Positions 24,629-45,843 of a stretch of 64,000 nucleotides of DNA are shown piece after piece; the first letter of the stretch is position 1, and each line of letters begins with the position of its first letter. Location of the stretch: NCBI GenBank assembly GCA_038240835.1, contig JBBRGJ010000001.1, forward strand, positions 3,776 through 67,775, written 5' to 3'. A program made the translations under genes and the position numbers. The notes beneath the pieces are model-generated. The model saw only the letters and a program-made list of their open reading frames with translations, searched no databases and was not told where the DNA came from. This DNA comes from Bacteroidales bacterium (GTDB taxonomy: Bacteria; Bacteroidota; Bacteroidia; Bacteroidales; WCHB1-69).

Positions 24629-24835
24629 AAGTATATTTTTTTACAAAAGTACGTTATTTTTTATCAGCTTCTGAAGTGTATGTGCTTTTTTATATATCTC
24701 CAATTTAATAAAAGTTCCTAATCTTCTATGGTATTGATTAAAGATTTTTCATGATAACCTTCTTTAGAATTCCCTTTATTAGAATGTAAATACCTAATCT
24801 GTTTATTTTTTTTTGTTTAAAGTGTTTTATTTTTG

Positions 24836-24843
24836 TATCTTTG
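24836..24843 (+). promoter_or_regulatory. -7 box TATCTTTG upstream of the T9SS cargo gene
   Basis: TAnnTTTG match 27 nt before ATG 24870. Confidence 0.45.
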
Positions 24844-24869
24844 TGTACTTATTTTAAAAATTTCATGTT

Positions 24870-26849: not shown

Positions 26850-26898
26850 TTTAGGGCATGAAAAAGGAGGTAGATACCTCCTTTTTCATGCCCTAAAC
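26849..26898. terminator. 24-bp perfect inverted repeat between convergent genes (probable bidirectional terminator)
   Basis: gtttagggcatgaaaaaggaggta / tacctcctttttcatgccctaaac with a 2-nt centre. It starts in the last base of the stop codon of the T9SS cargo gene. Confidence 0.6.
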
Positions 26899-26932
26899 TA
26901 CATGGATTTCCTGAATAAAATCTCGAATTCCT

Positions 26933-28030: not shown

Positions 28031-29096
28031 CTATTAAAATTTCCGTGTAATTGTTTTTTAAAGCTGTTGCTGAATACTCGTTCCTTAGCAAATCTATTGA
28101 ATTATTACTGAACTTTTGATACATTTCGGGATTTGAAATAACATTTAAAATTGATGTTGCAATTTGAGTTGAATCCCCAATTTTTGAAGTAAATCCATTA
28201 AAATTGTCTACCACTAACTTGCTGCTATCGCCAGCTGTTGTTGCAATGATGGGGAGCTTGAAACTCATCGCTTCCATAATGGTATTAGACATACCTTCAA
28301 AAATAGAAGTAGATATGTAAAGATCAGCTTTTATATACTCTTCATTAGTATTTGCCAACTGACCATCCACTATTTTAATATATTCAGACAATCCGAATTC
28401 AATGATTTTCTCTAAAATTGTTTTGTAAAGTGGCCCATATCCAACAATAGTTAATTCAAACTGATCAAATTTTAATCTATTTTTTAATTTATCAATGGAT
28501 TCAATGAGCGTATTATATCCTTTTTCTTCTACAAATCGGCCAACAGTTAAAAACTTAAAAAATTGAGTATGTTCGATGGATCGATTGATTAAAAGATTTT
28601 TATCAGGGATCAAAATCCCATTAGGGATAACGAATATGTTTTTTTCTTTGAACCCATATCCAATATATTTTGTTTTTGCAAAATAGCTATTTGATATAAA
28701 TTTTATATTTAAACAATTACAAATACACTTCATCGCAATCATTTTATGGAATGATTTAGACTTAGGTCCTCTAATTCCACAAAGAATGTTTTTTGTGCCA
28801 ACAATTTTTCCAACTACTGAACCTAATATGTTGTTGCTTGGCAAATAGCAAATTAAATTTTTCGCTTTTGCTCTCTTCAAAATAAGGAATAATGAAATCA
28901 ATTTATTGATAAAACAACCTTTTAAGAAAACGATATTGTCAATTTCTTTATACGAAATATGGTTGTTGCTTTTTGAGTTTTGATGATGAACTACAACTAA
29001 TGTTTTTCGCTCTTTTTGTAACTCTTTAGCCAAAATTAATGATTGCTTTTCTGCACCACCTTTCGTCAATGATCTTATGTAGATGATTGTGTTCAT
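28023..29096 (-). CDS. glycosyltransferase family 4
   Basis: GGAEKQ N-terminal motif and EGMSNTIMEAMSFKLPIIAT. Overlaps both neighbours by 4-8 nt. Confidence 0.75.
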   Translation of the reverse strand: MNTIIYIRSLTKGGAEKQSLILAKELQKERKTLVVVHHQNSKSNNHISYKEIDNIVFLKGCFINKLISLFLILKRAKAKNLICYLPSNNILGSVVGKIVGTKNILCGIRGPKSKSFHKMIAMKCICNCLNIKFISNSYFAKTKYIGYGFKEKNIFVIPNGILIPDKNLLINRSIEHTQFFKFLTVGRFVEEKGYNTLIESIDKLKNRLKFDQFELTIVGYGPLYKTILEKIIEFGLSEYIKIVDGQLANTNEEYIKADLYISTSIFEGMSNTIMEAMSFKLPIIATTAGDSSKLVVDNFNGFTSKIGDSTQIATSILNVISNPEMYQKFSNNSIDLLRNEYSATALKNNYTEILIDD

Positions 29097-29653
29097 TTAT
29101 CAACAAAATCTAAGATTATTTTCTTTCGGTCTTGTTTTGATGTCCCTGTTGGAATTATGACACTTTTTGACAAACAATCTTCTTTGTATTGTTCTATGTT
29201 TTTTATTGGCTTGGCTGGAATTCCAATTGCCACTGAATTGTCGGGGATGTCCTTTGTGACAATACTCCCACTGCCTATCACAACATTGTTTCCAATATTT
29301 GTATTTGGCATTATGATTACATTAGAGCCAATAAAGACATTATTACCAATAGTTATCCTCCCAAAAATATTTAACCCAGGGAACTGATTTCTAAGAACAA
29401 AAACTCCTCCGTCGTGTGTGTGAAAAACTACATCTTGCGTAATTGTAACGTTATCACCAATAGAGATTAAATATGCTTCACTTCCCCATCTTGGAAATCC
29501 AGTGATTCGTACATTTTTGCCGAATTTTATTTTGTGATAATAGGCGCAGACTCTATATTTTCGGGTGTTTGACGACAAGGACATCAGTAGCAAGTAAATT
29601 ATTCTATTTAATTTTTTCATGTATTTTATGATAGTAGTTGTTATATTGACCAA
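29093..29653 (-). CDS. hexapeptide-repeat (LbH) O-acetyltransferase
   Basis: Repeated [LIV]G-x4 hexapeptides (IGNNVFIGSNVIIMPNTNIGNNVVIGSGSIV). The true start may be the internal ATG near 29620. Confidence 0.75.
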   Translation of the reverse strand: MVNITTTIIKYMKKLNRIIYLLLMSLSSNTRKYRVCAYYHKIKFGKNVRITGFPRWGSEAYLISIGDNVTITQDVVFHTHDGGVFVLRNQFPGLNIFGRITIGNNVFIGSNVIIMPNTNIGNNVVIGSGSIVTKDIPDNSVAIGIPAKPIKNIEQYKEDCLSKSVIIPTGTSKQDRKKIILDFVDK

Positions 29654-30887
29654 GGGTCATTCCTAATAGAAAAAAGCCAAATATTCTAAACGTAATTGCA
29701 TTTAATCCCCCAGAGAAGGACATGGCTATTATACTAAAAAAGGAAGAGACGAAAAGATAATTTAAATGTACAAGATTTCGATTTGATATTCTTCGCCTGA
29801 CTCTTTTTTTGAAAAATAGAAATTTTGAAAAAACCTTTAAATAAAATAGAGCATATAAAATTATTCCAACTAGTCCGCTACTGAAAAAGATAATGTTTAT
29901 ATCTACATGCAAGGGTCTGTCTCCAAATTCTCCGTTGCCATAATTCTCAACCGAGTTAAAAGGCTTCTCTCCAAAAAAAAGCAACTTTAATGATTTCTGT
30001 TCGAAACGCTCTTCCCATAAATTAATAGATTCTTTCAGCCTTGATTCCTCATTTAAACCTTTGTCAAATGTTTTAGTTCTTGCGTCAAATTGTTTGTCAA
30101 ACAATGAGTTAAATTCAGGAAGAACAAAAATGACGGCAATGCCAATTATGATAATAAATCTAATAGATTGAACACCTATCCTGTAAAAAAGAATTATTCC
30201 AATTCCTGAAATGCCCAAAATCACATATGCTGAACGCCTGAATGCGATGATAATAATACCTACAACTAAAAAAGTTAACACGATAAATAGTAGCTTTTGC
30301 TTTTTTATTAGAATTAAGGCCATGCTTATGGTAATAGTTAGACTTGGGATATACCACATGTTTGAAACAATTCCTCCAGTATAAAACCCTACTTCTTCAG
30401 AGTATCCAGCCCATCCGAGTTTGAAGATGTTTGAAATTATGATGTTGACAAGAGTGATGATCAACAGAGAAAAAGCCATCTCCTTGAATTTGATGAGATT
30501 AAAATTATTACGACTAAAATAAGTGTAAAATGCATAAAAACTATAAATAATCAGAATGAATTTAATAGTTTCAGTGATGCCTTTAATGTTTTGGAACTCA
30601 AAAATTGTCGATATACTTAAGATAGAAATCAATAAAATAAAATAAATATAGGCTGGTTTATTTTGAAAAGAAATTGATTTTGAACTTCTCCTGAGTTTGA
30701 AGTAGAAGAAGATTATAATAAAAAATCTAATTAAATTTAATATCAAAGTACTTGATGAATCTATCGAATAGAACACTAAATCGTAAATATAGTTGAAAGG
30801 AAGGAACATATATACTGCTTTGTGTGTGTCTTTTGTTAAGACATACAAAAAGTAAATACAAAGTATAATGATTATTGCAATTTGCAT
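29604..30887 (-). CDS. O-antigen/EPS polymerase (Wzy-like) multi-pass membrane protein
   Basis: 427 aa, about 10-12 TM helices plus one larger loop. Its position next to Wzx is typical of Wzy. Confidence 0.6.
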   Translation of the reverse strand: MQIAIIIILCIYFLYVLTKDTHKAVYMFLPFNYIYDLVFYSIDSSSTLILNLIRFFIIIFFYFKLRRSSKSISFQNKPAYIYFILLISILSISTIFEFQNIKGITETIKFILIIYSFYAFYTYFSRNNFNLIKFKEMAFSLLIITLVNIIISNIFKLGWAGYSEEVGFYTGGIVSNMWYIPSLTITISMALILIKKQKLLFIVLTFLVVGIIIIAFRRSAYVILGISGIGIILFYRIGVQSIRFIIIIGIAVIFVLPEFNSLFDKQFDARTKTFDKGLNEESRLKESINLWEERFEQKSLKLLFFGEKPFNSVENYGNGEFGDRPLHVDINIIFFSSGLVGIILYALFYLKVFSKFLFFKKRVRRRISNRNLVHLNYLFVSSFFSIIAMSFSGGLNAITFRIFGFFLLGMTLGQYNNYYHKIHEKIK

Positions 30888-31879
30888 TAAATGTCGTTTT
30901 TTGGGACGATGTCTAAGATCTGAATATTTTTATTGCGAAAAATTTGATAGACTTCTAAAATGTCTTTGTTCGTGACGAATTTTTGTAAATCTATTGAAAT
31001 AATTTCAATATTATCTGGCAGTATCTCTTTTAGTGTTACTAAAGCAGATGAGTAAAAAGAGAGTACTATTTTTGGAGAAATCAAGTTGTCTGTTAAATAT
31101 AGTTCAAGAGGAATTGAAATGGGGCCTTTTGTGATGGAGAAGTTTTCCGGATATTTTATTTTATTTACAGATAGTTCCCATCTATGAGGAATATATTCGA
31201 TTGTCGAATTACTATAATATTGACCTATTATTTTAAAAAAATAATTAATTTCTTCCTCTGTAAATAATTTTGCCTCAAGCAACGGCTGACCAATAAAAAT
31301 TATTTTTTCACCCAAAGTTGATTTCTGAATCGACTTAAGATATGAGAAGTTATTCTTTAAAAAAATGTGAGAAGTTGGACTTGATTCAGGTGTCCTTAAA
31401 AACGAGAATGAGGTAACGCTATTATTGTTTGTCAGATAGTCAAAATCTAATCCTTTAGAACTTAATCCGTCATCTAATAATATGATCTCTTTGTTTGAAA
31501 CAGAGTTTGTGATTTTATGGAAATCTTTGTAATTTGGATCACCTATAATAATTGAATTATGTTTCTTTAGAAGGGCCTCTATTCTCTTTTGTTGAATTTT
31601 TTGCTGAATTATTGCGCCAATTTTAATTGGTATTTTTAATAATAAATGGTCTCTTAAGATAATCTGTTTCCCAAATAATGAGATGATGTTAGAATTGAAT
31701 ATTTTGATTCTTTTATACGATTTGATATTCAAATAATTAAAAGAATTGGTCATCTGGATGTTTGAGAAATTGTATTTCTCAAAGTAAATAAAATCAATTT
31801 TATCCAATGAAATATTCATCGAAAATGCATATTCTACAGCACAGATCAATTGCAAGGGGGTTTTAATTATTGCGATCAT
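30887..31879 (-). CDS. putative nonulosonic-acid (sialyl-type) transferase, GT52-like
   Basis: From my recollection of GT52 (LsgB/Lst type): N-terminal KTPLQ, LLDDG, FIGQPLLE, YIPHR and SFYSSALVTL line up with CTPLQ, FDDG, FIGQPLL, YFPHP and FFSSVAFNL. It sits next to the CMP-sugar pathway. Confidence 0.45.
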   Translation of the reverse strand: MIAIIKTPLQLICAVEYAFSMNISLDKIDFIYFEKYNFSNIQMTNSFNYLNIKSYKRIKIFNSNIISLFGKQIILRDHLLLKIPIKIGAIIQQKIQQKRIEALLKKHNSIIIGDPNYKDFHKITNSVSNKEIILLDDGLSSKGLDFDYLTNNNSVTSFSFLRTPESSPTSHIFLKNNFSYLKSIQKSTLGEKIIFIGQPLLEAKLFTEEEINYFFKIIGQYYSNSTIEYIPHRWELSVNKIKYPENFSITKGPISIPLELYLTDNLISPKIVLSFYSSALVTLKEILPDNIEIISIDLQKFVTNKDILEVYQIFRNKNIQILDIVPKNDI

Positions 31880-33137
31880 TTAATGTTTTAATTAGTAAGT
31901 AATATGCAAGAATTGATGTGATTACAAATCCAATTAAAGTGCCCACTGATACAGCTGTTAATGGTGAGAAAAAAGGCAAACAGATAATTGGAAAAACAAA
32001 CATTAAAATTACTTTTAATATACTATATATTGAAACCGCTTTTTTATTTCCAATGCTGTAAAAAATATTGATACATATAGTATTTGTATTTATTACGCCA
32101 CTTATTAAAAACAACTGTGTAGCAAGAGTTCCTTCAATATATTTTGGGAAATACAGCTCTATAGCCCAAGGAATAAAAAAGATAGAAAATATAATAGTGG
32201 GGATTAATAAGATAATAGAAGCTAGGTATATTTTGTTCACATACGGAATGAGTATCTTTTTGTCTTGATGCTTCCCATATAAATAGGAGAACTTGGGGTA
32301 TAAAAATTGAGATATCGTACCAGGCAAAAAAGCAATTGCAGTGAAAACTGCTGTAGCTGGGGAAAATAGTCCAACTAAATACACCGACCCAATAGCGAGC
32401 AAAATCATTCGATTAAACGTTTTTGTTACTTGTTGAAGATATCCCCATGCGAATATAGGAACACCGACTTTCATTAATTTACGAAATGACTCTTTTGAAA
32501 AATTGGCTTTTAATTTAAATGGACGAAATATGTGAGTTAAAATTAAAAAAATAAACGCGTTCGAAAAGTAGAAAATTAATAGTCCATTATAGTTGAAAAA
32601 ATAGACAAATGATAAACTTAAAATCATGAAAAATGAAGATACATGATTTATTTTAGACAAAGTGTCAAAACTTTTAGATGTTCTATACGTGACATTTAAA
32701 TAGTTCTGGTAAAAGCTAAATGAAATTAAAAAGACGATTACAAGAAGCATCTTAATCTCATGTTCGCCCATTTTTCCAAAGAAATAGATGAGAAGAGTGA
32801 TTATTAATCCTAATATAAGAGTTCCACTACTTAATGCTTTTGCATATGATATTCCTGTTTTTACTAATTCTTTTGCTTCATTTTCTTTGTTCTGTCCAAA
32901 TAAAAAAGGAATTTCTCTGTTTAAGCCGGTAAAAACTCCTAGTTGTAAGAAAAATGTATATGCTATCAATACATTGAATGAGTTGTAAATGCCAATTTCA
33001 TTTGGAGATACCCATTTTAGAATAATCACATTTGTAACCGCTAAAATAAGTGTTTTAATAAAACTAGATAAGGCAAAATTAAAAAAAACCGTCTTTTCCT
33101 TGGTTAGTTTTATTTTAGATAAAAAAGCGTATTGCAT
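31863..33137 (-). CDS. wzx: oligosaccharide flippase (Wzx / MOP superfamily)
   Basis: 424 aa, about 12 TM helices, typical polysaccharide-biosynthesis-protein topology and context. Confidence 0.7.
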   Translation of the reverse strand: MQYAFLSKIKLTKEKTVFFNFALSSFIKTLILAVTNVIILKWVSPNEIGIYNSFNVLIAYTFFLQLGVFTGLNREIPFLFGQNKENEAKELVKTGISYAKALSSGTLILGLIITLLIYFFGKMGEHEIKMLLVIVFLISFSFYQNYLNVTYRTSKSFDTLSKINHVSSFFMILSLSFVYFFNYNGLLIFYFSNAFIFLILTHIFRPFKLKANFSKESFRKLMKVGVPIFAWGYLQQVTKTFNRMILLAIGSVYLVGLFSPATAVFTAIAFLPGTISQFLYPKFSYLYGKHQDKKILIPYVNKIYLASIILLIPTIIFSIFFIPWAIELYFPKYIEGTLATQLFLISGVINTNTICINIFYSIGNKKAVSIYSILKVILMFVFPIICLPFFSPLTAVSVGTLIGFVITSILAYYLLIKTLNDRNN

Positions 33138-33142
33138 TTTAG

Positions 33143-33826
33143 CTATGATTTATTTTTGAGAATTAATTCGCACAAATCCCAATCAATTTCTGTGTCAATA
33201 TCGAGAGAATCAATTTCTGACATGAAATATTTTTTAATTTTCTTAAATTCTGTCATAGAGCCTTTTTTTAATGATTTTACATTTATAATGTAAATAGCAC
33301 CATTTAATTCCCATACTTTTGGACAATCTTGCCTTCTAATAAAATTGCCTTTTTTAGTCTTTCTCAAAAAACCATGTTCATTTTCTTCATATAAGACAAA
33401 ATATGGATTTGATTTAGTCTCTTTAACGGATACAACCATGTCGATATTGTCAGTATATAATTCTAGAGATTCTTTAATGTGAAACGATGTTCGAAATGGT
33501 GATGTTGGTTGTAGTAAAATAATCGTGTCAGGGACGAACCCTTTTTCTTCAACTTCTTTTAATGCATGAATTAAAACATCGTGTGTGGATGAGTTGTCTT
33601 GAGAAATATCTGAGGGTCTAATAAATGGGACAGTTAGCCCAGTTTGTTCGACAATTTTTTTGATATTCAAATCATCCGTTGATACTATTATTTGGTCGTC
33701 AGTAAATAATTCTCTAGCAGCGGCAATTGTGTAGTGAATTAATGGGATTTTATTTAGCAATCTGATGTTTTTACCAGGAACTCCTTTAGAACCGCCTCTG
33801 GCAGGAATTATAACTAATGGCTTCAT
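33143..33826 (-). CDS. neuA: CMP-nonulosonic acid synthetase (acylneuraminate cytidylyltransferase, NeuA/LegF type)
   Basis: IIPARGGSKGVPGKNI N-terminal cytidylyltransferase motif; 227 aa. Confidence 0.85.
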   Translation of the reverse strand: MKPLVIIPARGGSKGVPGKNIRLLNKIPLIHYTIAAARELFTDDQIIVSTDDLNIKKIVEQTGLTVPFIRPSDISQDNSSTHDVLIHALKEVEEKGFVPDTIILLQPTSPFRTSFHIKESLELYTDNIDMVVSVKETKSNPYFVLYEENEHGFLRKTKKGNFIRRQDCPKVWELNGAIYIINVKSLKKGSMTEFKKIKKYFMSEIDSLDIDTEIDWDLCELILKNKS

Positions 33827-34872
33827 TATAATTGAATGTTTAATATATCTTCTTGTGCTTTTGCAAAATCCTCAGGTTTGCCAATATCTAACCAGTAGCC
33901 TAAATGTGGATAGGAGGTGACTTTTTTCCCCATTTTAATTAATGTTTCCATAAAATCTGTGGAGTTAAACTCTTTTTGGATGGGGATATGTTCTAAAAGT
34001 TCTCGTTTAAACAAATATATTCCTCCGTTTGCATAATAGGTGTATTGGGGCTTTTCTTTAAAGTCGGTAATGATTCCTTCATCGGTTTCCAATATAGCGT
34101 AAGGAACTTGAACGTGATACGGAATGGTTGCAACAGCTAAATCAGCTTGTTTGTTTATAAAATGAAGGAATAAATTTTCGTAATCTATGTTTGTGAGAAG
34201 ATCGGAATTGAGCACCATAATATAATCACTCAAGAAATTATGAATTAACGAAATGGATCCAATGGTTCCCAACGGTTCTTCCTCTGTAATATGATGAATT
34301 TTAATGTTTTTTTGGCTGCCATCTCCAACATGTTCGATAATTTGATCTCCTAAATATCTGGATGTAATCCAAATATTGTCGATTCCAAAAAGGCGCAATC
34401 GATCTATGTTGTGATCAATGATTGTTTTTGGACCAACTTTTAATAATGGTTTTGGCGTATGGTCTGTTAATGGTCTTAATCGTTCGCCTCTTCCACCGGC
34501 CATAATCACTGCATCGATGGGAAGATAAGATTTTATTTCACGAAAATTAATGACATTTACAACTTCATTCTTTTTATTAATAATTGGAATGATTCTGAAA
34601 TTTTGATTGCGGTATTCAATAACTTTAGCAAAATCACAATCTTCTTTTCGTAAATACCGTGGATTGGGTTGAATAATACAATCTACGATATCTTGAATGC
34701 TAAATCCTTTGAGTAAACCCCTACGTACATCACCATCGGTAAGCGATCCGATCAGTTTATTGTCCCCGTCAACAATGAAAATAATTGCATCTATGGCAAG
34801 CGAGTCTAGTCGCTCGAGTGCTTCTCTTATTGTACTTCCTGATGCCAATAAGTGTTTTCTAAATGTTTTCAC
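33826..34872 (-). CDS. CBS-pair + sugar-1-phosphate nucleotidyltransferase (PtmE-like)
   Basis: N-terminal CBS pair. MAGGRGERLRPLT..PKPLL nucleotidyltransferase motif. Confidence 0.75.
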   Translation of the reverse strand: MKTFRKHLLASGSTIREALERLDSLAIDAIIFIVDGDNKLIGSLTDGDVRRGLLKGFSIQDIVDCIIQPNPRYLRKEDCDFAKVIEYRNQNFRIIPIINKKNEVVNVINFREIKSYLPIDAVIMAGGRGERLRPLTDHTPKPLLKVGPKTIIDHNIDRLRLFGIDNIWITSRYLGDQIIEHVGDGSQKNIKIHHITEEEPLGTIGSISLIHNFLSDYIMVLNSDLLTNIDYENLFLHFINKQADLAVATIPYHVQVPYAILETDEGIITDFKEKPQYTYYANGGIYLFKRELLEHIPIQKEFNSTDFMETLIKMGKKVTSYPHLGYWLDIGKPEDFAKAQEDILNIQL

Positions 34873-35977
34873 GATACGCTTTTTTTAGTTCGTTAATGAT
34901 TGCGTTTGAGGTGTCTGGTTTGAAGAAAAGGTTGCACCCCTCGTATTCAATCTTTGAAAAAGTAATTGTTTCCTGATATATTTGTTCGCTGTTGAACGGA
35001 ACATGAATTACATTTTCACCGCAAATACGCCCTTTTTGCCGATCTCCCAAATTTAATACATATTTCCCAAAGGAAGCGGCTTCAATGATTCCACTCGAAG
35101 TATTTCCTATCATCAAAGCACAATGTTTCATGGCAGAGAAGTAACCACGTGTTCCTAAATTTTCAACACAAATTATTCTGTTTTGTGTTTCTGCTGAAAG
35201 GCGCAACAATCGATCTCGAATCACTGCATTGCTGGTATCTGCATTGGGTAAAGTAACCAATACTTGAAACTCGTTCAAGCGAAGAATTGCATTTGAAAAC
35301 GCTTCAATGTTTTGTTGATTATTTTCGGGATGAATAGTTTCAGGATGTATCGTTGTTAATATAGTTGGGGGAGATAAATCAATGGAAAATTGATCTTTAA
35401 ATTCTTCGATTGAATAGAGAGAAATTGATTTTAAATTTTCTAAACTTAATGCTCCAACATTAAAAACGTTTTTTTGAGATGAAATTAGTTCTTCAACTCT
35501 TGATTTGTGTTGTTCACAAGAGGTAAAATGGAGTTTGGAAGCATGGGTAATGGAATTTCTAAAAATGTTATCCATTGCACCCAAGGTGGTTTCCCCGCCA
35601 TGAATATGCGCAAAGTTAATCCCAAATGGAATTCCGGCAGTTACAGCTGCAAACATTTCGTATCGGTCGCCAAGGCATAATACCCAATCGTATTTTGTTG
35701 AATATTTGTCCCAAAAATCAGAAAATTCGGCAATAGTTTTGGCAATGGCTTTAGAAATATCAACGGCAGAATCTCCTTTTGGAGTGGTTTTTAATTTGTA
35801 CTTTACGTTAAAGCCATCTTTCAATATTTGGTCGATTGTATATCCAAACTCGTGCGACAGGTGAGTGCCAAAAGCAATAATGTCGAATTCTAAATCTACT
35901 GTTTTATCTAGCGTTTTTAAAAGGGGAACATATACTCCGTAATCTGCACGCGAACTGGTGAGAATTGCAATTTTCAT
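34859..35977 (-). CDS. neuC: hydrolysing NDP-N-acetylhexosamine 2-epimerase (NeuC/LegG type)
   Basis: MKIAILTSSRADYG start. ATG 35977 forms an ATGA overlap with the neuB stop. Confidence 0.8.
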   Translation of the reverse strand: MKIAILTSSRADYGVYVPLLKTLDKTVDLEFDIIAFGTHLSHEFGYTIDQILKDGFNVKYKLKTTPKGDSAVDISKAIAKTIAEFSDFWDKYSTKYDWVLCLGDRYEMFAAVTAGIPFGINFAHIHGGETTLGAMDNIFRNSITHASKLHFTSCEQHKSRVEELISSQKNVFNVGALSLENLKSISLYSIEEFKDQFSIDLSPPTILTTIHPETIHPENNQQNIEAFSNAILRLNEFQVLVTLPNADTSNAVIRDRLLRLSAETQNRIICVENLGTRGYFSAMKHCALMIGNTSSGIIEAASFGKYVLNLGDRQKGRICGENVIHVPFNSEQIYQETITFSKIEYEGCNLFFKPDTSNAIINELKKAYRENI

Positions 35978-36996
35978 AACAAATCCTCCCAAGCTAATTG
36001 GTCGTCAGAAAACAAGTTCTTGATTGTCCTTTTTCCAATTACTTTGTCAATTTCCATCGGCGAGATGCCATCTCCTGGCCTTTTCATGATTAAATCTGTG
36101 GCTTTTATTTCTAGTCCAGCTTTGATGTCATTTTTTACATGAATACTTTTGCGGGCAATATCTTTATTTTTTATTTCCGATGGAGAAGCCGTTTTTATTC
36201 CATCACCGCTCAGGGCAAGTTCCACATTCCTGATGGCTTCTACCATCGCTTTCAATTCATTGGGTTCGAGTGATGCTGCGTGATCTGGACCTTTCATCTT
36301 TCGGTCTAATGTAAAATGTTTTTCAATAATAGTAGCTCCTAATGCAACTGCTGCAATGGGAATTTCAATGCCTAAAGTGTGATCCGAATAGCCAATTTCG
36401 ACTCCAAATTCCGATTGAATATGGAGCATCGCTCTTAAGTTTACATCGCGCATGGGGGTTGGATATTCCGTATTGCAATGCAATATAGATATTTTATCCA
36501 TTGAAATACCTTCGTTTGTAAGGACTTTTAATGCATCTTTTATCTCTCCTAAATCAGACATTCCAGTAGACAATACGATGGGTTTCCCTTTTTGAGCAAT
36601 GTGTCTTAATAAAGGAAGATTTGTGATTTCGCCAGAGGGGATTTTGAAAAAAGGAATTCCAATCTCCGATAGAATATCAACACTGATTTCGTCAAATGCA
36701 GTGGACAAAAACTGAATTTTTTTACTATCGCAATAAGCCTTGAGATCTAATAGTTCAGTTTCTGATAACTCGAGTTGCTTGAGCATTTGATATTGAAAGC
36801 CATTCTCATTTAAATCATTTTTTTTCTGATATTCAGCCATTTTAGCACTCTTTGAAACAATATTTTCGGCTTTAAATGTTTGAAATTTGACAAAATCTGC
36901 CTTTGCATCCGTTGCCGCGTCAATCAATTTTTTAGCAATTGATATTGATCCGTTGTGGTTCACTCCAATTTCAGCAATAATGATGACCTTTTTCAT
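35974..36996 (-). CDS. neuB: nonulosonic acid synthase (NeuB/LegI type)
   Basis: IIAEIGVNHNGS motif, TIM-barrel part and a C-terminal SAF domain. Confidence 0.85.
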   Translation of the reverse strand: MKKVIIIAEIGVNHNGSISIAKKLIDAATDAKADFVKFQTFKAENIVSKSAKMAEYQKKNDLNENGFQYQMLKQLELSETELLDLKAYCDSKKIQFLSTAFDEISVDILSEIGIPFFKIPSGEITNLPLLRHIAQKGKPIVLSTGMSDLGEIKDALKVLTNEGISMDKISILHCNTEYPTPMRDVNLRAMLHIQSEFGVEIGYSDHTLGIEIPIAAVALGATIIEKHFTLDRKMKGPDHAASLEPNELKAMVEAIRNVELALSGDGIKTASPSEIKNKDIARKSIHVKNDIKAGLEIKATDLIMKRPGDGISPMEIDKVIGKRTIKNLFSDDQLAWEDLL

Positions 36997-37631
36997 TATT
37001 TTATTTGTCTTTTTAATGGATTTCCAAAATACATACTAGGTACTTCGATGGATTTATTTACAATACTTCCAATTCCGATGATTGTATTATCCGGAATTTG
37101 GATATTATTTGAGAGGATACTTCCACTTCCAATAAAACAATTATTGCCAATAGTGCAATTTCCATTAATGATTACGCCTGTTGAAATATGAGTGTTATTG
37201 CCAATTATGGTATCGTGTTCGATGAGAGATTTTGAGTTTATGATGCAATTTTCGCCAATAATTACATTTGAATTTACCAAAGCATGATTCATGACAATTG
37301 ATCCTCTGCCAATTTTTGCAAATTCTGAAAAATAGGCAGCTTTTGAAACAATGGTTGCCAATTCGCCCCCTTTACTAAGAACTAAATTCATAAGATTTTT
37401 ACGAAGGGTGGAATCTTTGATTTGTCCTACAGTAATAATAAATTGGCAAGATGAAGCATGTTTTGAAATAAGTTCATCTGTCCCGATGATTGGAAATCCA
37501 CAACAGAACTCTCCAATTCTGTCTGATTTATCTAAAATTCCAATGATGGTATAGTCAGAGTTTTTCGCAACTTCAATTACAGAATTACAGTGTCCTCCAC
37601 CTCCAATTAATATCAACTTCTTTTTTTTCAT
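36996..37631 (-). CDS. NeuD/PglD/LegH-family sugar N-acetyltransferase
   Basis: LILIGGGGHCNSVIEVA Rossmann-like N-terminus followed by hexapeptide repeats. Confidence 0.8.
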   Translation of the reverse strand: MKKKKLILIGGGGHCNSVIEVAKNSDYTIIGILDKSDRIGEFCCGFPIIGTDELISKHASSCQFIITVGQIKDSTLRKNLMNLVLSKGGELATIVSKAAYFSEFAKIGRGSIVMNHALVNSNVIIGENCIINSKSLIEHDTIIGNNTHISTGVIINGNCTIGNNCFIGSGSILSNNIQIPDNTIIGIGSIVNKSIEVPSMYFGNPLKRQIK

Positions 37632-38779
37632 ATTCTTACACTACTAGGTATATTCACCACTCGTTCTTCAACCCAAATTGAATTTGTTAATTCATCTGTT
37701 TGACAATCCTTATACATCGGCAGTCGGTTCATTAGTTGCCAAACAGGTCTGGTCATTACCCCAGCAGCATTCGTTTCTTGAAGAAATTGTTGCTGAATTA
37801 TTCTATTTGGCAATATCACAGCGTTTAACCAATAGTTGGATTTGCAATCAATGGGTTCGTTAAAGAAATCGATGCCTTTTATGGTCGAGAAAAATGACTT
37901 ATATTTTTGAGCTGTTTCTCTCTTGTTTTCAATAATCTTTTCGATCAGTTCCATTTGTGCACAACCGAGCGCAGCATTTATGTTTGGCATTCGATAATTG
38001 TACCCAATTTCATCATGTTCAAAATTCCATGCATGAGGAACTTTAGCTTGGGTGGTGAGATGTTTGGCTTTAATGGCCAGATCTTCATCGTTGAAAAGTA
38101 ACATACCACCACCACCAGTAGTAATTGTTTTATTTCCATTAAAACTTAATACGCCAATTTTGCCAAATGTGCCCGTATGTTTCCCTTTGTAAAAACTCCC
38201 TAAGCTTTCAGCGGCATCTTCTATTAATTCTAACTTCCATTTTTTGCACACACTTAACAGTTCTTCAATACGAACCGGATGCCCAAATGTGTGCATTGGA
38301 ACACAAGCTTTTATTGTTCGCTTGGTCTTTATATTTATGCAATGTCCATTTCTGAGTTCGGCATTTTGTTCTAACCATTTTTCAACAGCAATAGGGGAGA
38401 GTCCCATGGTCTCTTTGTCCACATCTATAAATATTGGATGCGCATTGCAATAGGAAATAGCATTCGCAGTTGCAACAAATGTAAGTGCCTGGGTAATGAC
38501 TTCATTATCTTTCTCTACGCCCAGCAATTTGAGTGCTAAATGTAATGCATTGGTGCCGTTAACACACGCAACCGCTTTTTTTGTTCCGGTATATTTCTCC
38601 ATTTTTTCTTCAAAGAGATCGACATATTTCCCAACACTTGAAACAAAGGTTGAGTCAATACACTCTGTAAGATATTTCTTTTCTTTTCCGTTAAAAGTTG
38701 GACTGTGCAACGTGATTGTGTCGTTTGAACAGGCATATAAACTTTTGACGAATGAAATAAATAATTTAATATTGATCAT
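37628..38779 (-). CDS. DegT/DnrJ/EryC1-family PLP aminotransferase (LegC type)
   Basis: HSPTFNGKEKKYLTECIDSTFVSSVGKYV N-terminus and SFNGNKTITTGGGG (PLP Lys). Start set at the internal ATG 38779; the ORF-track extension is hydrophobic junk. Confidence 0.8.
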   Translation of the reverse strand: MINIKLFISFVKSLYACSNDTITLHSPTFNGKEKKYLTECIDSTFVSSVGKYVDLFEEKMEKYTGTKKAVACVNGTNALHLALKLLGVEKDNEVITQALTFVATANAISYCNAHPIFIDVDKETMGLSPIAVEKWLEQNAELRNGHCINIKTKRTIKACVPMHTFGHPVRIEELLSVCKKWKLELIEDAAESLGSFYKGKHTGTFGKIGVLSFNGNKTITTGGGGMLLFNDEDLAIKAKHLTTQAKVPHAWNFEHDEIGYNYRMPNINAALGCAQMELIEKIIENKRETAQKYKSFFSTIKGIDFFNEPIDCKSNYWLNAVILPNRIIQQQFLQETNAAGVMTRPVWQLMNRLPMYKDCQTDELTNSIWVEERVVNIPSSVRI

Positions 38780-38895
38780 GTAATATAAATAATTGACAAA
38801 AATTAAGATATAGCAAAGCCCTTTCACTCACATTGATATTTTGTTTAAATATATGAGTTACAGCTATTTGTGTTATTTTTTCTGAGAAAATTTAA

Positions 38896-39393
38896 TTATA
38901 TTTTCTCTATGTCATTTCCCATTAATTCAAAGACAAAGGCTTGCCCAATGGCTTCAATGATAATCAATACTTTTGATTTACCCTTGATTTGGGTTAACAC
39001 TCCTTGCATTCCTTTAAATGGTCCTTTTTTTATCAATACGTTGTCTCCCAGCTGAATGTTTAGTGTCGAAATCAACTGAGGTTTTTGTTCAATGCTTAAA
39101 TACTCTTTAATCCCGTCAATGATTGATTTGTCAATTTTATAATCTATGTTTTCAAATTTAATAATCTTGGCAACTCCTTCGGTGAATAATATATGATCTC
39201 TCTGTTTTGGTGAAAAGTAGACAAATAAATATCCCGGAAAAAGTGGCTTCTCTACCCATTTTTTTCGGTCACTCCACTGAACATATTCTTTAAAAAGAGG
39301 AAGATAGGTGTCAAACCCTTGCATATTGAGTATATGGTCACATTTTTTTTCAAATCTCGACCGTGTGACTAATATGTGCCAACTCTTCTCCAT
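38896..39393 (-). CDS. UpxY-family NusG-like transcription antiterminator
   Basis: NGN domain (WHILVTRSRFEKK..PLFPGYLFV) plus KOW (GDNVLIKKGPFKGMQGVL). Heads the biosynthetic part of the polysaccharide locus. Confidence 0.8.
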   Translation of the reverse strand: MEKSWHILVTRSRFEKKCDHILNMQGFDTYLPLFKEYVQWSDRKKWVEKPLFPGYLFVYFSPKQRDHILFTEGVAKIIKFENIDYKIDKSIIDGIKEYLSIEQKPQLISTLNIQLGDNVLIKKGPFKGMQGVLTQIKGKSKVLIIIEAIGQAFVFELMGNDIEKI

Positions 39394-39453: not shown

Positions 39454-39461
39454 CAAACTTA
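39454..39461 (-). promoter_or_regulatory. -7-like box TAAGTTTG (minus strand) overlapping the ompA-like stop, upstream of the upxY hairpin
   Basis: The reverse complement of caaactta matches TAnnTTTG. A 13-bp-stem hairpin follows immediately, then the upxY ATG. Confidence 0.35.
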
Positions 39462-40763
39462 TTTTATGATAATAAAATCAACCCGACGATTAATCGAATT
39501 ATTTTTGCTCGACAATGGATCGGAGCTAACTTTAACCATTGTTTCCAATCGAGATCTATTAATGTTATACTCTTTTGCTAACATTTCGAGCACCGCTTTT
39601 GAACGATTATTTGCAAGTTTATTATTTACCCCATCTTTGTCTCTTTTGTCGGTATGAGCAATTACTGTGAGGCGTGCATTTGGATACGTTCTTAAATAGA
39701 GCGCTACAGCTGCCATGTTGGCAAAATTATTTCTTGTAATTGTATAACTACCTGTTTCGAAATAAACAGAAGGAAGTACTGCTCCAAAACTTACTTGTTT
39801 ATCAGACATTAGAGAGTCTACCTTGTCAGAAATATCTTGTGTCTTTTCCTTCAATGCAATCACTTTTTCATCCACAGGTTTTACTACGGCTTGTGCAATA
39901 GAATCCATTTTGGTGTTTTTAAGTGCAGCAACTTCTTTTGCTAACGAATCTACTTTTTGGGCCAATGCGTCATATCCATCGGTATTATTTTTTGCATTTT
40001 CGTATTCTCCCATATTAACCCACTGGAGGGATTTCTCTTTTTTGCCAAAGATGTAATGGACCCCAAAATGGGTATAGCTATATTTGTCTCTAGGGTTGTA
40101 TTGACGTTCAAAGGCATCTAACTTATCAGAATTTAAATTACGGAGGTTTGTCTCTAAATTGATGAAAATTTTCTCGCTAATACGATATTTTACTCCTAAT
40201 CCAACTGGGAATACGGCTTCAATAGTTCTATCTGCTTTAGTGTTTCCATTGTCGCTATATCCTCTACTTGCGACAAATACATCTTGGTCAAGGGTTGTTA
40301 GTTTTGCACGGAAGGCAACTAATCCAAATCCAATTAATCCATAAAAATCCAATTTTTCATTCAATTTCAAACGAGGAGCCCACCATTTACTAAGACTTAC
40401 GGTCGCATTAAAACCATACTCCATGATATTTGAATTGAATTTCAGATTAGCTACTGCATGGTTTTTCCAATTCGTTTTTTTTCCAGCTAAATCCCCATAG
40501 ATAAATTGTCCCTGAAGTCCAAGAATAGGAGACACTTGGTACCCAACAACAGCACCGCCTCCAAATTTCCATTCACCACTCACTGGCATGTAGTCTTGTT
40601 GTTTAATATTGGTAAAAGTAATCATAGTTCCACCATTTAAACCAATGTAAAATCGGTTGTAGCCTTTGTATTCAGGTTCAACCGTTTTTTCAATTTGAGC
40701 AAATGTATTTTGCGCAAAAATGAGTGTTATTAAGATAAGTATTCCCCTTTTAATTGTTTTCAT
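39459..40763 (-). CDS. OmpA-family protein: N-terminal beta-barrel, central coiled coil, C-terminal OmpA domain
   Basis: Signal peptide. Coiled-coil-like segment (ALAQKVDSLAKEVAALKN...KEKTQDISDKVDSL). C-terminal OmpA motif (TDKRD..NNKLANNRSKAV..NRRVDFII). Confidence 0.8.
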   Translation of the reverse strand: MKTIKRGILILITLIFAQNTFAQIEKTVEPEYKGYNRFYIGLNGGTMITFTNIKQQDYMPVSGEWKFGGGAVVGYQVSPILGLQGQFIYGDLAGKKTNWKNHAVANLKFNSNIMEYGFNATVSLSKWWAPRLKLNEKLDFYGLIGFGLVAFRAKLTTLDQDVFVASRGYSDNGNTKADRTIEAVFPVGLGVKYRISEKIFINLETNLRNLNSDKLDAFERQYNPRDKYSYTHFGVHYIFGKKEKSLQWVNMGEYENAKNNTDGYDALAQKVDSLAKEVAALKNTKMDSIAQAVVKPVDEKVIALKEKTQDISDKVDSLMSDKQVSFGAVLPSVYFETGSYTITRNNFANMAAVALYLRTYPNARLTVIAHTDKRDKDGVNNKLANNRSKAVLEMLAKEYNINRSRLETMVKVSSDPLSSKNNSINRRVDFIIIK

Positions 40764-40769
40764 ATAGTC

Positions 40770-43214
40770 TTACTTTTTGTTTTTACGGAATAAAGATAAA
40801 ATATTTTTTTTGTTCTTATTGTTAACATTGTCAGAATAATAATAATTGTGGCGATATTTATACCCATATTTATATCGATATTCATAGCTGTCTCGCCTTG
40901 AATCGTCGTTGAGGATAATTCCAATGCTTCTTATCTGTTCAGTTTTATATACGTTGTTTATGTCTTCTAAAAATCTTTTTCTTGTGTATTTCAAACGAAC
41001 AATATATAAAATAGTGTCAACGTTTGGAAAAATTTGCAATGCATCCGAAACAATATTGATAGGCGGAGTATCTATGATGATAAATTCATATTGTTTTTTC
41101 AACTCATCAATCATTTTTAACATATTTTCAGACCCAATCAATTCTGATGGATTTGGAGGAATTGGTCCCGCTGCAAGATAATCTAAATTAGCGATATGCG
41201 TTTTGCTGATTGACTCGTTAATGGTAGATTGCCCTGATAAATATGTGCTTATCCCCGTATGCGACTCTGAATCGAATACTTTAGATAATCCAGGATTTCG
41301 AAGATCCAGTCCAAGAATAATAGTCTTCTTGTTTGTGATGGCATAGCCAATCGCAATATTCACTGAAATGAATGTTTTTCCTTCGGATGGAATTGAAGAG
41401 GTGACTAATATAGTGTGTTGGTCTGTATTGTTTAATATAAATTTCAATTTAGTTCTTAATGCTCTAAAAGCTTCTGCGATATCCGATTTAGGAAAATCAT
41501 TTACAACCGTTGCGTTGGGATATTCCGAGTGGGGAATGCTTGTAATTATAGGGATTTTCGTAATGGGTGTGATATCTGTTTTTGATTCAATGTAGTCGTA
41601 TAAGTTTTTCTTAATGATTACGTATAAAATTGGAAGAAAAAGACCTAAAATTAATGATATTAAGTAAATTAATTGTTTGTTTGGGGATACTGGATTTGTA
41701 TTTATTGCGCGAGCACTATCAATAAGTTGACTGTCGGGCATGTTGGACGCTTTTGCAATAGCAGACTCAGCTCTTTTTTGAAGAAGAAATATATAAATAT
41801 CATTGTTTATTTTGAAATTCCGTTGCATTCCTATTAAAGAACGCTCAGTTTCTGGTATTTTCAACAACTCTTTGTCATAACTGGCTAAGTTTTTCTTTAA
41901 CTCTCTGATTTCAATTAAGGTTGTACTATTTAAACTTTTGATGGTTTCGATTATCCCATTTTTAGTTTCTGTAATTTGTTTGTTTATGTTTTGAACTAAT
42001 GGGTTGTTGTTTGTAGAGTTGAATTGCAATTTCCTCTTTTCTGAAGAAAATGAAAATAAGTCACTCACTAATTTGTTTAATAGTACGTCTGATATTCCCA
42101 TTACAGAAGGGGTGACAATATCCTTAAACTCATCATTGATTAAAAGATAATCGTTTAAGTATTTGAAATATTTTAATCGAAGTTCGGCCAACGCAATGTC
42201 TGTTGCAATTTTTTGTGACTGTTCATAAGCGCCAGCTACCTGAATGTCTACATTAATTACTTTATTTGTGCGTCTGAATGATTCTAGTTGAGATTCGTTT
42301 GAGTGGAGTGAATCAGATAGACCAGATAATTGCGTGTCGATAAAATCAATGGTTGAAGAAGCAATTTTGTTTTTTTCTAGTAAGTTGTTTATGGTGTATT
42401 GCTCAATAAATTCATTTAAAAAATCAATTGCCTCTTCTGAGTTATCATGAATTAAACTTACGTCAATGATGTCAGACTTTTTACTAGTAGGTTCTGCTTT
42501 AATAGAACTATTTAAAACTGTGGATAGATTTTTTAAATCCCTAATTTCAAAATAATACGTCTCATCAGTCATTATATTTTCATCAACTTCAGAATCTTTC
42601 CGCTCTTCTATCTTTAATTTTAACCAGTTTGTTTCTATCCATTGATCCGTTTTGAATGTTTGATTCAATGTTTTTGATTGAGGACTCGATTTTGAAGTTG
42701 TCAAGTCGATAAAGTTTATAGATTGGTTGTTGTGAGCCTCTAACTCTATTTTAAAGGTTGTTTTGTTGATAAATTTAAGTTTGAATAATCCAATTAGTTG
42801 TGGATGTGTTTCGTCAAAAACAACTGAAAAAGGAGCTTTTTTGTATATATTGTCTCTGCGAAGTTTGTTGAATTTGTAGTAACTGACAAAATGGTTCGAA
42901 TTCCTAATGGTTGCTTCAGCGATACTGTATGATTTAATAATCCCTATTTCGTTTTCAATGTTTTGTTGATTGTCAAAAAGACCAAATCCTTTCATTAATT
43001 CATCTGAATTTCCAGGTTTAGAATCTTTTTTTATTAAAATAGTTGAAGTTGCTTTGTATTTTCTTACAGTTTTGATGTTGATATAATAACCGACTGAGAA
43101 ACAAATCAATATACTTATCGGAAAGAAATACCAAATTCTAATGATATTGCTGATGTAGGATTTTATATCAATACTTTCATCTTTCTGTATGTTGTCAATT
43201 TGTTCAATGTCCAT
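40770..43214 (-). CDS. wzc: polysaccharide co-polymerase / BY-kinase (Wzc type)
   Basis: Wzz-like N-terminus with 2 TM helices. Walker A in VTSSIPSEGKT. C-terminal Tyr cluster YEYRYKYGYKYRHNYYY. Confidence 0.85.
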   Translation of the reverse strand: MDIEQIDNIQKDESIDIKSYISNIIRIWYFFPISILICFSVGYYINIKTVRKYKATSTILIKKDSKPGNSDELMKGFGLFDNQQNIENEIGIIKSYSIAEATIRNSNHFVSYYKFNKLRRDNIYKKAPFSVVFDETHPQLIGLFKLKFINKTTFKIELEAHNNQSINFIDLTTSKSSPQSKTLNQTFKTDQWIETNWLKLKIEERKDSEVDENIMTDETYYFEIRDLKNLSTVLNSSIKAEPTSKKSDIIDVSLIHDNSEEAIDFLNEFIEQYTINNLLEKNKIASSTIDFIDTQLSGLSDSLHSNESQLESFRRTNKVINVDIQVAGAYEQSQKIATDIALAELRLKYFKYLNDYLLINDEFKDIVTPSVMGISDVLLNKLVSDLFSFSSEKRKLQFNSTNNNPLVQNINKQITETKNGIIETIKSLNSTTLIEIRELKKNLASYDKELLKIPETERSLIGMQRNFKINNDIYIFLLQKRAESAIAKASNMPDSQLIDSARAINTNPVSPNKQLIYLISLILGLFLPILYVIIKKNLYDYIESKTDITPITKIPIITSIPHSEYPNATVVNDFPKSDIAEAFRALRTKLKFILNNTDQHTILVTSSIPSEGKTFISVNIAIGYAITNKKTIILGLDLRNPGLSKVFDSESHTGISTYLSGQSTINESISKTHIANLDYLAAGPIPPNPSELIGSENMLKMIDELKKQYEFIIIDTPPINIVSDALQIFPNVDTILYIVRLKYTRKRFLEDINNVYKTEQIRSIGIILNDDSRRDSYEYRYKYGYKYRHNYYYSDNVNNKNKKNILSLFRKNKK

Positions 43215-43217
43215 TGC

Positions 43218-44009
43218 CTATTTTTTTGAGATAAAAGAGATGATTACAATAACAGTGGTGATAGCACTTAATATAGTAGAATATGGGAAAACTGCTAACC
43301 CAAAAGGTTTGGTTTTCATAGGTTCAACATAAACTATATCGTTCGGCATTAAGATAAATGCCTCACTAGATATTAGAGTAGATTTAGTAATATCAATGGT
43401 TAATATCTTACAATTATCATCTCCAATTTTTCTCACAACGGATATGTTTCTTCTATTTCCGTATGGAGTTAAATCCCCAGCCATTGCAATTGCATCTAAA
43501 AGATTGATGTGCTTTTGTGATGCATAATACTGACCAGGTCTAATTACTTCTCCAAGGACTGAAAAGTTCGTATTGGCTAGCTTTACGCTAACTATTGCAT
43601 CAAGTATAAATCTATGCATTGATTTTTCAATAGCGTCTTTGAGTTGCTCTGTCGTCATTGATTTGCATGAAAAAGATCCCACTAAAGGCAATTGTATGTT
43701 AAACTCATCATCAATAGAATAAGTGGTTAGAAATAGAGAATATGGTGTTACAGATGCAGACGAAAATGGTTCGGTATTTTTTCCATTAATCAATGTCCTC
43801 ATTTCCGGATTAGTGGTTTTGATATCGATGTATAAATTATCTCCCTTTTGAAGTAAATAGGGTTGTGAGACTACTTTTATGGTGTCGTTGTGGTTCGATT
43901 TGTCTCGTTGTAGATACTTAAGTCTGCTTACAGGTGTGCAGGATGTTATTAGGAGTGATAGGATGCCTAATAAAACTAAAGTATATGTTATGTTATTGTA
44001 TTTCAGCAT
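43218..44009 (-). CDS. wza: polysaccharide export protein (Wza family)
   Basis: Lipobox ITSC, Poly_export-like LQKGDNLYIDI, SLBB-like region and a C-terminal TM helix. Confidence 0.8.
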   Translation of the reverse strand: MLKYNNITYTLVLLGILSLLITSCTPVSRLKYLQRDKSNHNDTIKVVSQPYLLQKGDNLYIDIKTTNPEMRTLINGKNTEPFSSASVTPYSLFLTTYSIDDEFNIQLPLVGSFSCKSMTTEQLKDAIEKSMHRFILDAIVSVKLANTNFSVLGEVIRPGQYYASQKHINLLDAIAMAGDLTPYGNRRNISVVRKIGDDNCKILTIDITKSTLISSEAFILMPNDIVYVEPMKTKPFGLAVFPYSTILSAITTVIVIISFISKK

Positions 44010-44052
44010 TTTAATTGTAATTCTCTATTTGAACAGATTTGTTGTATATATG

Positions 44053-44060
44053 CAAAATTA
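44053..44060 (-). promoter_or_regulatory. -7 box TAATTTTG (minus strand) upstream of wza
   Basis: The reverse complement of caaaatta matches TAnnTTTG, 44 nt before ATG 44009, inside the 104-bp wzi-wza spacer. Confidence 0.4.
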
Positions 44061-44113
44061 GTATTTTTTTACATTATATACTCTATTTTTTTTGTTAATT
44101 CACGAAAAGTAGT

Positions 44114-45820: not shown

Positions 45821-45843
45821 ATTGTCTTTGATATCAGGTTAAA

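Follow-up and report, generated by a model that had tools for sequence, protein, structure and literature searches.

The closest characterised system in the Bacteroidota to the genes described here is the cytidine monophosphate (CMP)-legionaminic acid pathway of Tannerella forsythia, in which the 4,6-dehydratase LegB accepts guanosine diphosphate (GDP)-linked N-acetylglucosamine (GlcNAc) only, the LegB/LegC pair uses GDP-GlcNAc, the GDP-linked diacetamido sugar is the substrate of LegG, and a PtmE homologue is taken as a marker of the GDP route (PMC5378307). Split pathways, in which this dehydratase is encoded apart from the remaining genes, are already documented: in Bacillus subtilis a second locus, spsM, is required for legionaminic acid (PMC7439481), and the polysaccharide A (PSA) operon of Bacteroides fragilis has no dehydratase of its own and is supplied by UngD2, which is encoded elsewhere (PMC13063421). 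Here we describe a stretch of 64,000 nucleotides from the genome of an uncultured Bacteroidales bacterium (contig JBBRGJ010000001.1; the window, below) in which six consecutive minus-strand genes at 33143-38779 appear to work like a legionaminic (Leg) pathway and, as a gene cluster, form an incomplete member of it, since no sugar 4,6-dehydratase, nor a remnant of one, is present in the whole 64 kb. What is new is that the cluster has stayed incomplete throughout a lineage, so that the gap is not an accident of one genome.

All six gene assignments of the original prediction were reproduced with curated NCBIfam models and Pfam (Table 1), and adjacent genes of the module overlap by 1-19 nt; the gene caller placed the start of neuC at 35977 rather than 35992 in L001, an independent Logan assembly (SRR19962012). 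The aminotransferase, whose predicted role is the 4-amination of nucleoside diphosphate (NDP)-linked 4-keto-6-deoxy-GlcNAc, is 70-73% identical to LegC proteins encoded next to dehydratases and scored 219.7 bits against the PseC model, under the cutoff of 423.5. The synthase fell under the cutoff of the PseI model. Its own model, TIGR03569, covers both NeuB and LegI, and its matches in the PDB, NmNeuB of Neisseria meningitidis and SpsE of B. subtilis at 187 bits each, do not discriminate among pathways; the protein is 50-65% identical to the NeuB proteins of most LegB/LegC loci and clusters with the synthases of such loci. The best PDB matches of the epimerase were 5xvs and 5zlr, the hydrolysing GDP/uridine diphosphate (UDP)-N,N'-diacetylbacillosamine 2-epimerase, that is, LegG (214 bits), as compared to 116 bits for GNE of the N-acetylneuraminic acid (Neu5Ac) type, which supports a LegG-type enzyme with LegG as its closest solved relative. 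PseF was the nearest NCBIfam model to the CMP-sugar synthetase, and its only specific match there, at 139.5 bits and under the cutoff of 205.7. The PtmE-like protein, presumed to supply GDP-GlcNAc, is 44-66% identical to the product of the equivalent gene in most loci that contain LegB or LgaA.

By model and architecture, LegC, the acetyltransferase, LegG and PtmE all agree with a Leg pathway, and what the window lacks is the dehydratase encoded with it, be it LegB (TIGR04180) or a PglF/LgaA-type Polysacc_synt_2 protein. A pseudaminic acid (Pse) pathway does not fit the module, in which the PseC and PseI models stay under their cutoffs, a NeuC-type 2-epimerase takes the place of PseG, and PseB is missing. 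Nor does a NeuC/NeuB/NeuA pathway to Neu5Ac, given that legC and neuD head the module and are under purifying selection with the rest of it, and that NeuC is closest to LegG.

Whether a dehydratase is present was examined in three ways, with concordant results. Pfam scans of 46 open reading frames (ORFs) in the window detected none of the domains SDR, Epimerase, Polysacc_synt_2 and GDP_Man_Dehyd. When the ORFs immediately upstream of legC in 58 homologous loci, mostly dehydratases, were used as tblastn queries against the whole window, no dehydratase-like match was obtained; the sole two matches better than E = 0.04 came from queries that are non-dehydratase neighbours, and they fall in neuA and in a glycosyltransferase gene. 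Both dehydratase-type hidden Markov models (HMMs), run with --max against the six-frame ORFs of the window of at least 80 aa, scored no more than 3 bits. Because the upxY-legC junction is identical in L001, the missing dehydratase is not an assembly artefact. Pfam, tblastn and the six-frame HMMs therefore confirm the central point of the original prediction, that the locus lacks a dehydratase and has upxY upstream of the aminotransferase gene. The two outcomes that would have counted against that prediction did not materialise: no dehydratase gene lies just outside the locus, or anywhere else in the 64 kb, and the synthase, epimerase and aminotransferase group with enzymes of LegB/LegC loci and not with a plain Neu5Ac set.

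Candidates for a hidden or decayed dehydratase were rejected. A legB remnant at the upxY-legC junction is not seen, as the gap measures just ~100-116 nt in all four loci that share it (see below) and holds a conserved, regulatory-looking element and no coding debris. The 568-aa protein encoded between the phosphoglycosyltransferase and wza, considered as an unrecognised enzyme, carries a signal peptide, its sequence resembles a beta-barrel and its orthologues show weak similarity to Wzi; it is an outer-membrane protein and not a dehydratase. The 330-aa protein encoded downstream of the flippase gene was suspected of being a short-chain dehydrogenase/reductase (SDR) from its size; it gave no Rossmann or SDR match, and its orthologue matches a polysialyltransferase family.

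The same order, upxY-legC-neuD-neuB-neuC-ptmE-(methyltransferase)-neuA, recurs without a dehydratase in three other organisms, represented by L067, L068/L069 and L153. No SDR is present in the loci of the window, L067, L068 or L153, which have the wza-wzc-ompA-upxY backbone in common, and L153 is syntenic with the window over the whole operon as far as the flanking type IX secretion system (T9SS) gene. Relative to the window, GuaA is 89% identical (L067, L069), and Wzc and OmpA are 73-78% and 63-81% identical, respectively (L067, L068/L069, L153). IMPDH identities of at most 89% place the source of the window among uncultured Bacteroidales/Bacteroidota. The Leg genes are 54-78% identical among the dehydratase-less loci, except for neuD of L067 (26%), which encodes a different acetyltransferase. 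Synonymous sites are saturated between these loci (pS 0.64-0.83) with pN at 0.14-0.28, and the ratio of nonsynonymous to synonymous change (dN/dS) is ~0.05-0.17, mostly at or below 0.1, for all six genes across the four loci, again with the exception of L067 neuD. The most conserved of the six is ptmE (71-78% identity, dN/dS ≤0.09). Family-conserved residues, defined as alignment columns at least 90% conserved in all other homologues, are retained in the clade (71/71 in LegC, 42/42 in NeuC, 36/36 in PtmE and 72/73 in NeuB), no worse than in control clades.

In neighbour-joining trees the four loci form a clade for NeuB and for PtmE, and in the LegC tree this clade groups with L070/L071, where a bona fide LegB precedes legC. 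The next relatives of PtmE also carry a dehydratase in cis: Williamwhitmania taraxaci L154 (66% identity; LegB, TIGR04180, 501 bits) and L155 (68%; a 400-aa protein of the Polysacc_synt_2 type). Because the six genes are under purifying selection, the conserved residues are kept and the nearest outgroups carry a cis dehydratase, we consider the module to be functional and not a relic, a conclusion drawn from comparison of the sequences. The most parsimonious account is a loss of legB from the cassette in this lineage, with selection retaining the other genes. Two metagenome scans, one with PtmE as the sole query and one with an alignment of three PtmE sequences, yielded distant nucleotidyltransferases only and no member of the clade. 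Dehydratase-less sister loci (L067, 14978-18377; L068, 11638-15037; L156, 4003-7401) carry extra genes within the module, a methyltransferase gene between ptmE and neuA and two GFO_IDH_MocA-type oxidoreductase genes after neuA, and in L067 an unrelated enzyme of the hexapeptide type (26% identity) stands in place of the acetyltransferase. These differences point to modified nonulosonic acid derivatives in the sister organisms.

How uncommon the gap is was gauged by a scan of one genome per GTDB species, which gave 65 loci with LegC homologues, with further contexts from protein look-ups. Among the 40 assessable loci, meaning those with LegC, NeuB and NeuC and sufficient upstream flank, a dedicated dehydratase lies beside legC in 33; three have only some other GalE/RmlB-like SDR within 1-4 kb; and four (the window, L067, L068 and L153) have no SDR at all. 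Two kinds of dehydratase adjoin legC, the ~330-aa LegB family (TIGR04180, ~495-506 bits) and a ~400-aa PseB/FnlA-like Polysacc_synt_2 type. The missing cis dehydratase is thus unusual.

We propose that the module serves a legionaminic-type pathway of the canonical, GDP-linked kind, with the dehydratase gene lying outside the locus, and we put the probability of this reading at about 60%. PtmE would form GDP-GlcNAc, which a 4,6-dehydratase from outside the locus, most likely a LegB-type GDP-GlcNAc dehydratase in another glycan locus, would convert to the NDP-4-keto-6-deoxy-GlcNAc; LegC would then aminate C4, the NeuD/PglD-type enzyme would acetylate the resulting amine, and LegG would take off the nucleotide and epimerise C2. 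LegI would condense the LegG product with phosphoenolpyruvate, LegF would activate the sugar with cytidine triphosphate, and the polysialyltransferase-like enzyme would add it to the repeat unit. The predicted product is a CMP-activated 5,7-diacetamido-tetradeoxy-nonulosonic acid of the legionaminic type. The dehydratase is probably encoded elsewhere in the genome, because three related bacteria have the same gap, and an unlinked enzyme of LegB type is favoured over a UDP-specific one of the PglF/UngD type, because no other gene in the module is as conserved as ptmE. Several points weigh against this proposal. The large majority of homologous loci, 33 of 40, keep the dehydratase next to legC, so that its separation is an exception which calls for explanation. 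A search that covered 64 kb of the genome did not find the trans-encoded enzyme, and a GDP-GlcNAc dehydratase is a dedicated and not a housekeeping enzyme, whose presence elsewhere is not to be assumed. Finally, the carrier nucleotide, the stereochemistry of the product and all enzyme activities were assigned by homology throughout.

A UDP-linked pathway fed by a general dehydratase has direct precedents in UngD2, which serves the B. fragilis PSA operon, and in B. subtilis SpsM, which is complemented by PglF and not fully by LegB. Polysaccharide loci of related Bacteroidales (L003, L012, L023) commonly encode CapD-like proteins of ~640 aa, and the best solved relative of NeuC is annotated for both GDP- and UDP-linked N,N'-diacetylbacillosamine. 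However, ptmE would be superfluous in a UDP route, yet its conservation exceeds that of every other gene in the module (dN/dS ≤0.09), and the LegC of the clade groups with those that follow a LegB-type enzyme (L070/L071). In addition, specificity for the GDP-keto sugar has been reported for LegC of Campylobacter jejuni, and the T. forsythia LegB/LegC pair works on GDP-GlcNAc (PMC5378307). We regard the UDP route as unlikely.

Lower again we would rank a different chemistry, in which LegC receives another 4-keto sugar, such as GDP-4-keto-6-deoxy-mannose from the common GDP-mannose dehydratase Gmd, or in which Gmd moonlights on GDP-GlcNAc. The Gmd product could lead by way of a perosamine-like intermediate to a 5-hydroxy, 7-acetamido nonulosonate. 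In both cases a non-canonical product or first enzyme would be involved. LegC is about equally similar to GDP-perosamine synthases (3bn1, 219 bits) and to PglE-type enzymes (1o61/4ztc, ~210 bits), several sources call its homologues 'perosamine synthetase', in NCBIfam the PtmE-like protein scores best against a mannose-1-phosphate guanylyltransferase model (152 bits, far under the cutoff of 440), and the lack of a cis SDR is stable across the whole lineage. Nevertheless, the perosamine-type names stem from automatic annotation, LegC is 70-73% identical to proteins that adjoin GlcNAc-type dehydratases, the outgroups of the module are canonical LegB/LgaA loci, and no family-conserved residue is changed in LegC, NeuC or PtmE, and just one in NeuB. 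It is more doubtful still that a whole Bacteroidales lineage makes its nonulosonic acid without any dedicated GlcNAc 4,6-dehydratase, by means of a general enzyme such as Gmd acting on GDP-GlcNAc or of LegC acting on another 4-keto sugar; in the latter case, use of GDP-4-keto-6-deoxy-mannose by LegC would lead to an as yet undescribed nonulosonate, of the 5-hydroxy-7-acetamido type. That the locus is a decaying relic, which has lost legB and whose surviving genes have ceased to yield nonulosonic acid, would agree with the absence of the committed first step from the locus and the entire 64-kb window, but is scarcely credible: the six ORFs are intact in four lineages that have diverged to saturation at synonymous sites, with dN/dS at ~0.1, the conserved residues are kept, and the downstream flippase, putative nonulosonate transferase, polymerase and glycosyltransferase genes are intact and syntenic in L153. 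As between the two options left by the original prediction, a dehydratase encoded elsewhere or a different sugar, we favour the former in view of the conservation of the module, the purifying selection on it in four lineages and the retained residues, and the latter less so; neither is proven.

Although the gap anticipated by the original prediction is real, the novelty that it implied is tempered by the published split arrangements with spsM (PMC7439481) and UngD2 (PMC13063421), and the immediate biological significance is modest. Genome-based prediction of surface sugars usually demands the full enzyme set in one cluster. Such rules would wrongly score these genomes as negative, because the module stays under selection in several related organisms without its first gene in cis. 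Once located, the missing dehydratase would show whether environmental Bacteroidales glycan loci share precursor steps, as in B. fragilis; if these genomes have no such enzyme, the process would be chemically new.

A conserved non-coding element of ~60 nt lies in the 116 nt of non-coding DNA between upxY and legC. Its 20-nt core, TGTGAGTGAAAGGGCTTTGC, is 100% identical in seven related loci (L001, L067, L068, L069, L153, L071 and L072) and is present whether legC or legB follows, the latter being the case in L071 and L072. This identity persists although synonymous sites in the compared Leg genes are saturated, and the core occurs once in the window, against 0 occurrences expected by chance. 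The element, for which Rfam gave no match, is predicted to form a weak hairpin of 8 bp that includes a single compensatory pair. Because conservation ends right after it, the element marks where the conserved backbone gives way to the variable cassette. A scan of the window for sigma-70 promoters gave 77 sites as compared to 65 expected, which is not above background, with a model ill-suited to Bacteroidota promoters.

The gene run from 47376 to 26933 is unbroken on the minus strand in the ORF listing, and the module would head an UpxY-controlled Wzx/Wzy polysaccharide operon from 39393 to 26933. In this unit upxY comes first and is followed by the precursor genes, a Wzx, a Wzy-like protein, two GT4 glycosyltransferases and an acyltransferase, and it is bracketed by hairpins at 39450-39424 and 26896-26851. 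In B. fragilis the gene for the trans-inhibitor UpxZ stands directly after upxY; no UpxZ gene follows upxY in the window, where only the non-coding spacer separates it from legC. The gene downstream of the flippase gene probably encodes the enzyme by which the nonulosonic acid is transferred. Its product has no Pfam match of its own, a two-sequence profile found nothing in the PDB, and its single-sequence AlphaFold model was unusable (pLDDT 38.6); its orthologue in L153 (12988-13968; 42-43% identical) matches the A-2_8-polyST family (PF07388) over the full length with 32.2 bits, above the cutoff of 23.3. Guanine-plus-cytosine (G+C) content is 0.285-0.317 at 26001-34000, which takes in the flippase, polymerase and glycosyltransferase part, as compared to 0.33-0.41 in most of the window outside 22-34 kb; low G+C is typical of a horizontally exchanged, serotype-specific region.

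Upstream of upxY, the export backbone has the same gene order in L067, L069, L153 and L071. The Bac_transf match of its 510-aa phosphoglycosyltransferase is limited to residues ~350-502, and the N-terminal 350 residues have no family match. The 568-aa protein, which has no significant Pfam or NCBIfam match, is 76-81% conserved across the lineage, and its orthologues in L067, L069 and L153 are those with weak similarity to the capsule assembly protein Wzi. Between wzc and upxY, every member of the lineage encodes a 434-aa protein that combines a PorG-like barrel at its N terminus with a C-terminal OmpA domain, an unusual fixed component of the polysaccharide export block. Elsewhere in the window, what looks like a molybdate transporter is encoded together with molybdenum cofactor-type genes unrelated to the leg module, and an ORF-poor region of ~2 kb contains a single 208-aa ORF without family matches. 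Rfam and tRNA scans of the window gave no matches.

Table 1. Coordinates and supporting matches of the features discussed, in window positions and in the order of minus-strand transcription; the last two rows list regions elsewhere in the window
Feature	Position	Strand	Basis or remark
Export backbone	39459-47376	minus	transcription order: Bac_transf phosphoglycosyltransferase, 568-aa Wzi-like outer-membrane protein, wza, wzc, OmpA/PorG-like protein; no dehydratase
Phosphoglycosyltransferase, 510 aa	45844-47376	minus	Bac_transf
568-aa protein	44114-45820	minus	signal peptide, beta-barrel-like
OmpA/PorG-like protein, 434 aa	39459-40763	minus	OmpA C-terminal domain, PorG-like N-terminal barrel
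Hairpin followed by T-run, after the preceding ompA-like gene	39450-39424	minus	read from sequence
upxY, NusG/RfaH-like antiterminator, first operon gene	38896-39393	minus	NF033644, 119.7 bits (cutoff 100)
Conserved non-coding element, ~60 nt	38805-38872	minus	between upxY and first cassette gene; core TGTGAGTGAAAGGGCTTTGC at 38813-38832
legC, LegC-family pyridoxal phosphate-dependent aminotransferase, 383 aa	37628-38779	minus	TIGR04181, 571.4 bits (cutoff 420); PF01041
legH/neuD/pglD-type N-acetyltransferase	36996-37631	minus	TIGR03570, 200.8 bits (cutoff 160.8); PglD_N and Hexapep
legI/neuB nonulosonic acid synthase	35974-36996	minus	TIGR03569, 477.8 bits (cutoff 399.65)
legG/neuC hydrolysing NDP-sugar 2-epimerase	34859-35992	minus	TIGR03568, 363.5 bits (cutoff 235.9)
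ptmE-like CBS and sugar-1-phosphate nucleotidyltransferase	33826-34872	minus	PF00571 and PF00483 (NTP_transferase)
legF/neuA-type CMP-nonulosonate synthetase	33143-33826	minus	PF02348 (CTP_transf_3)
wzx-type flippase	31863-33137	minus	Polysacc_synt_3 and Polysacc_synt; 73% identical to positional orthologue in L153
Putative nonulosonate transferase, polysialyltransferase-like, 330 aa	30887-31879	minus	suggested by L153 orthologue
Putative wzy-like polymerase	29604-30887	minus	polytopic, hydrophobic; no family match; 56% identical to L153 orthologue
Hexapeptide-repeat acyltransferase	29093-29653	minus	PF00132
GT4 glycosyltransferase	28023-29096	minus	PF00534
GT4 glycosyltransferase, last operon gene	26933-28030	minus	PF00534 and PF13439
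Terminator-like hairpin, operon end	26851-26896	minus	20-bp stem
ORF-poor region, ~2 kb	22900-24870		between AAA_14 ATPase gene and gene for T9SS-sorted protein with MopE metal-binding motif
Transporter genes (possibly molybdate) and neighbours	4682-11615	plus	solute-binding protein, permease, ABC ATPase with TOBE, then MoeA, radical-SAM MoaA-like, MOSC/MoCF domains

The B. fragilis PSA operon (PMC13063421), like that of the window, is an UpxY-type polysaccharide operon of the Bacteroidales in which the 4-aminotransferase (WcfR) is present and the 4,6-dehydratase is encoded outside; unlike the window, it ends at a UDP-linked 4-amino hexose (AATGal) and has neither nonulosonic acid genes nor PtmE. 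The sps cluster of B. subtilis (PMC7439481) resembles the arrangement that we propose in that the legionaminic cluster has no 4,6-dehydratase and a separate locus supplies it. Its route is UDP-linked, with spsM complemented by PglF and not fully by LegB (PMC7439481), and SpsM is PseB/CapE-like, whereas the retained ptmE of the window argues for GDP. The GDP-linked Leg pathway of C. jejuni (LegB/C/H/G/I/F and PtmE; PMC5378307) shares with the window the enzyme families, the likely order of reactions and a PtmE-type CBS-nucleotidyltransferase, but it includes LegB and its genes are scattered in the flagellar glycosylation island; the acetyltransferase of the window is of the NeuD/PglD type.

The closest sequenced relatives of the module are found in W. 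taraxaci L154 (GCA_900096565.1), with PtmE 66% and NeuA 59% identical to those of the window, and in L070-L072, with LegC 71-72% identical. L071 (GCA_964653595.1) and L072 have the same wza-wzc-ompA-upxY backbone as the window, a flank that L070 lacks. In contrast to the window, in L154 and L070-L072 legC is directly preceded by a gene for a bona fide LegB (TIGR04180, 496-501 bits). L070-L072 have no neuB or neuC within the fetched stretches and appear to end at an acylated 4-amino sugar. The site that holds the module in the window is occupied in L071 and L072 by a different cassette, of upxY, LegB, a LegC-like protein, a GNAT, a FemAB-like acyltransferase and a CBS-nucleotidyltransferase (L070 being without upstream flank), which suggests a GDP-linked, N-acylated sugar of the bacillosamine type and swapping of cassettes at a fixed junction.

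The CMP-legionaminic acid locus of T. forsythia FDC 92A2/UB4 (BFO_1065-1074; PMC5378307) belongs to the same phylum and, like the window, comprises LegC, a PglD-like acetyltransferase, LegG, a NeuB-type synthase, a CMP-synthetase and a PtmE homologue; the use of PtmE as a marker of the GDP route in that organism fits the strong conservation of ptmE in the clade of the window. The GDP-linked route of T. forsythia was shown biochemically for LegB, LegC and LegG, whereas the window module is known from its genes. The two loci differ at the first step, as legB (BFO_1074) lies directly beside legC (BFO_1073) in T. forsythia and is missing from the locus and the 64 kb here, and they differ in the likely destination of the sugar, which caps a protein O-glycan in T. 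forsythia, while the module of the window stands behind upxY at the head of what is predicted to be a Wzx/Wzy polysaccharide operon.

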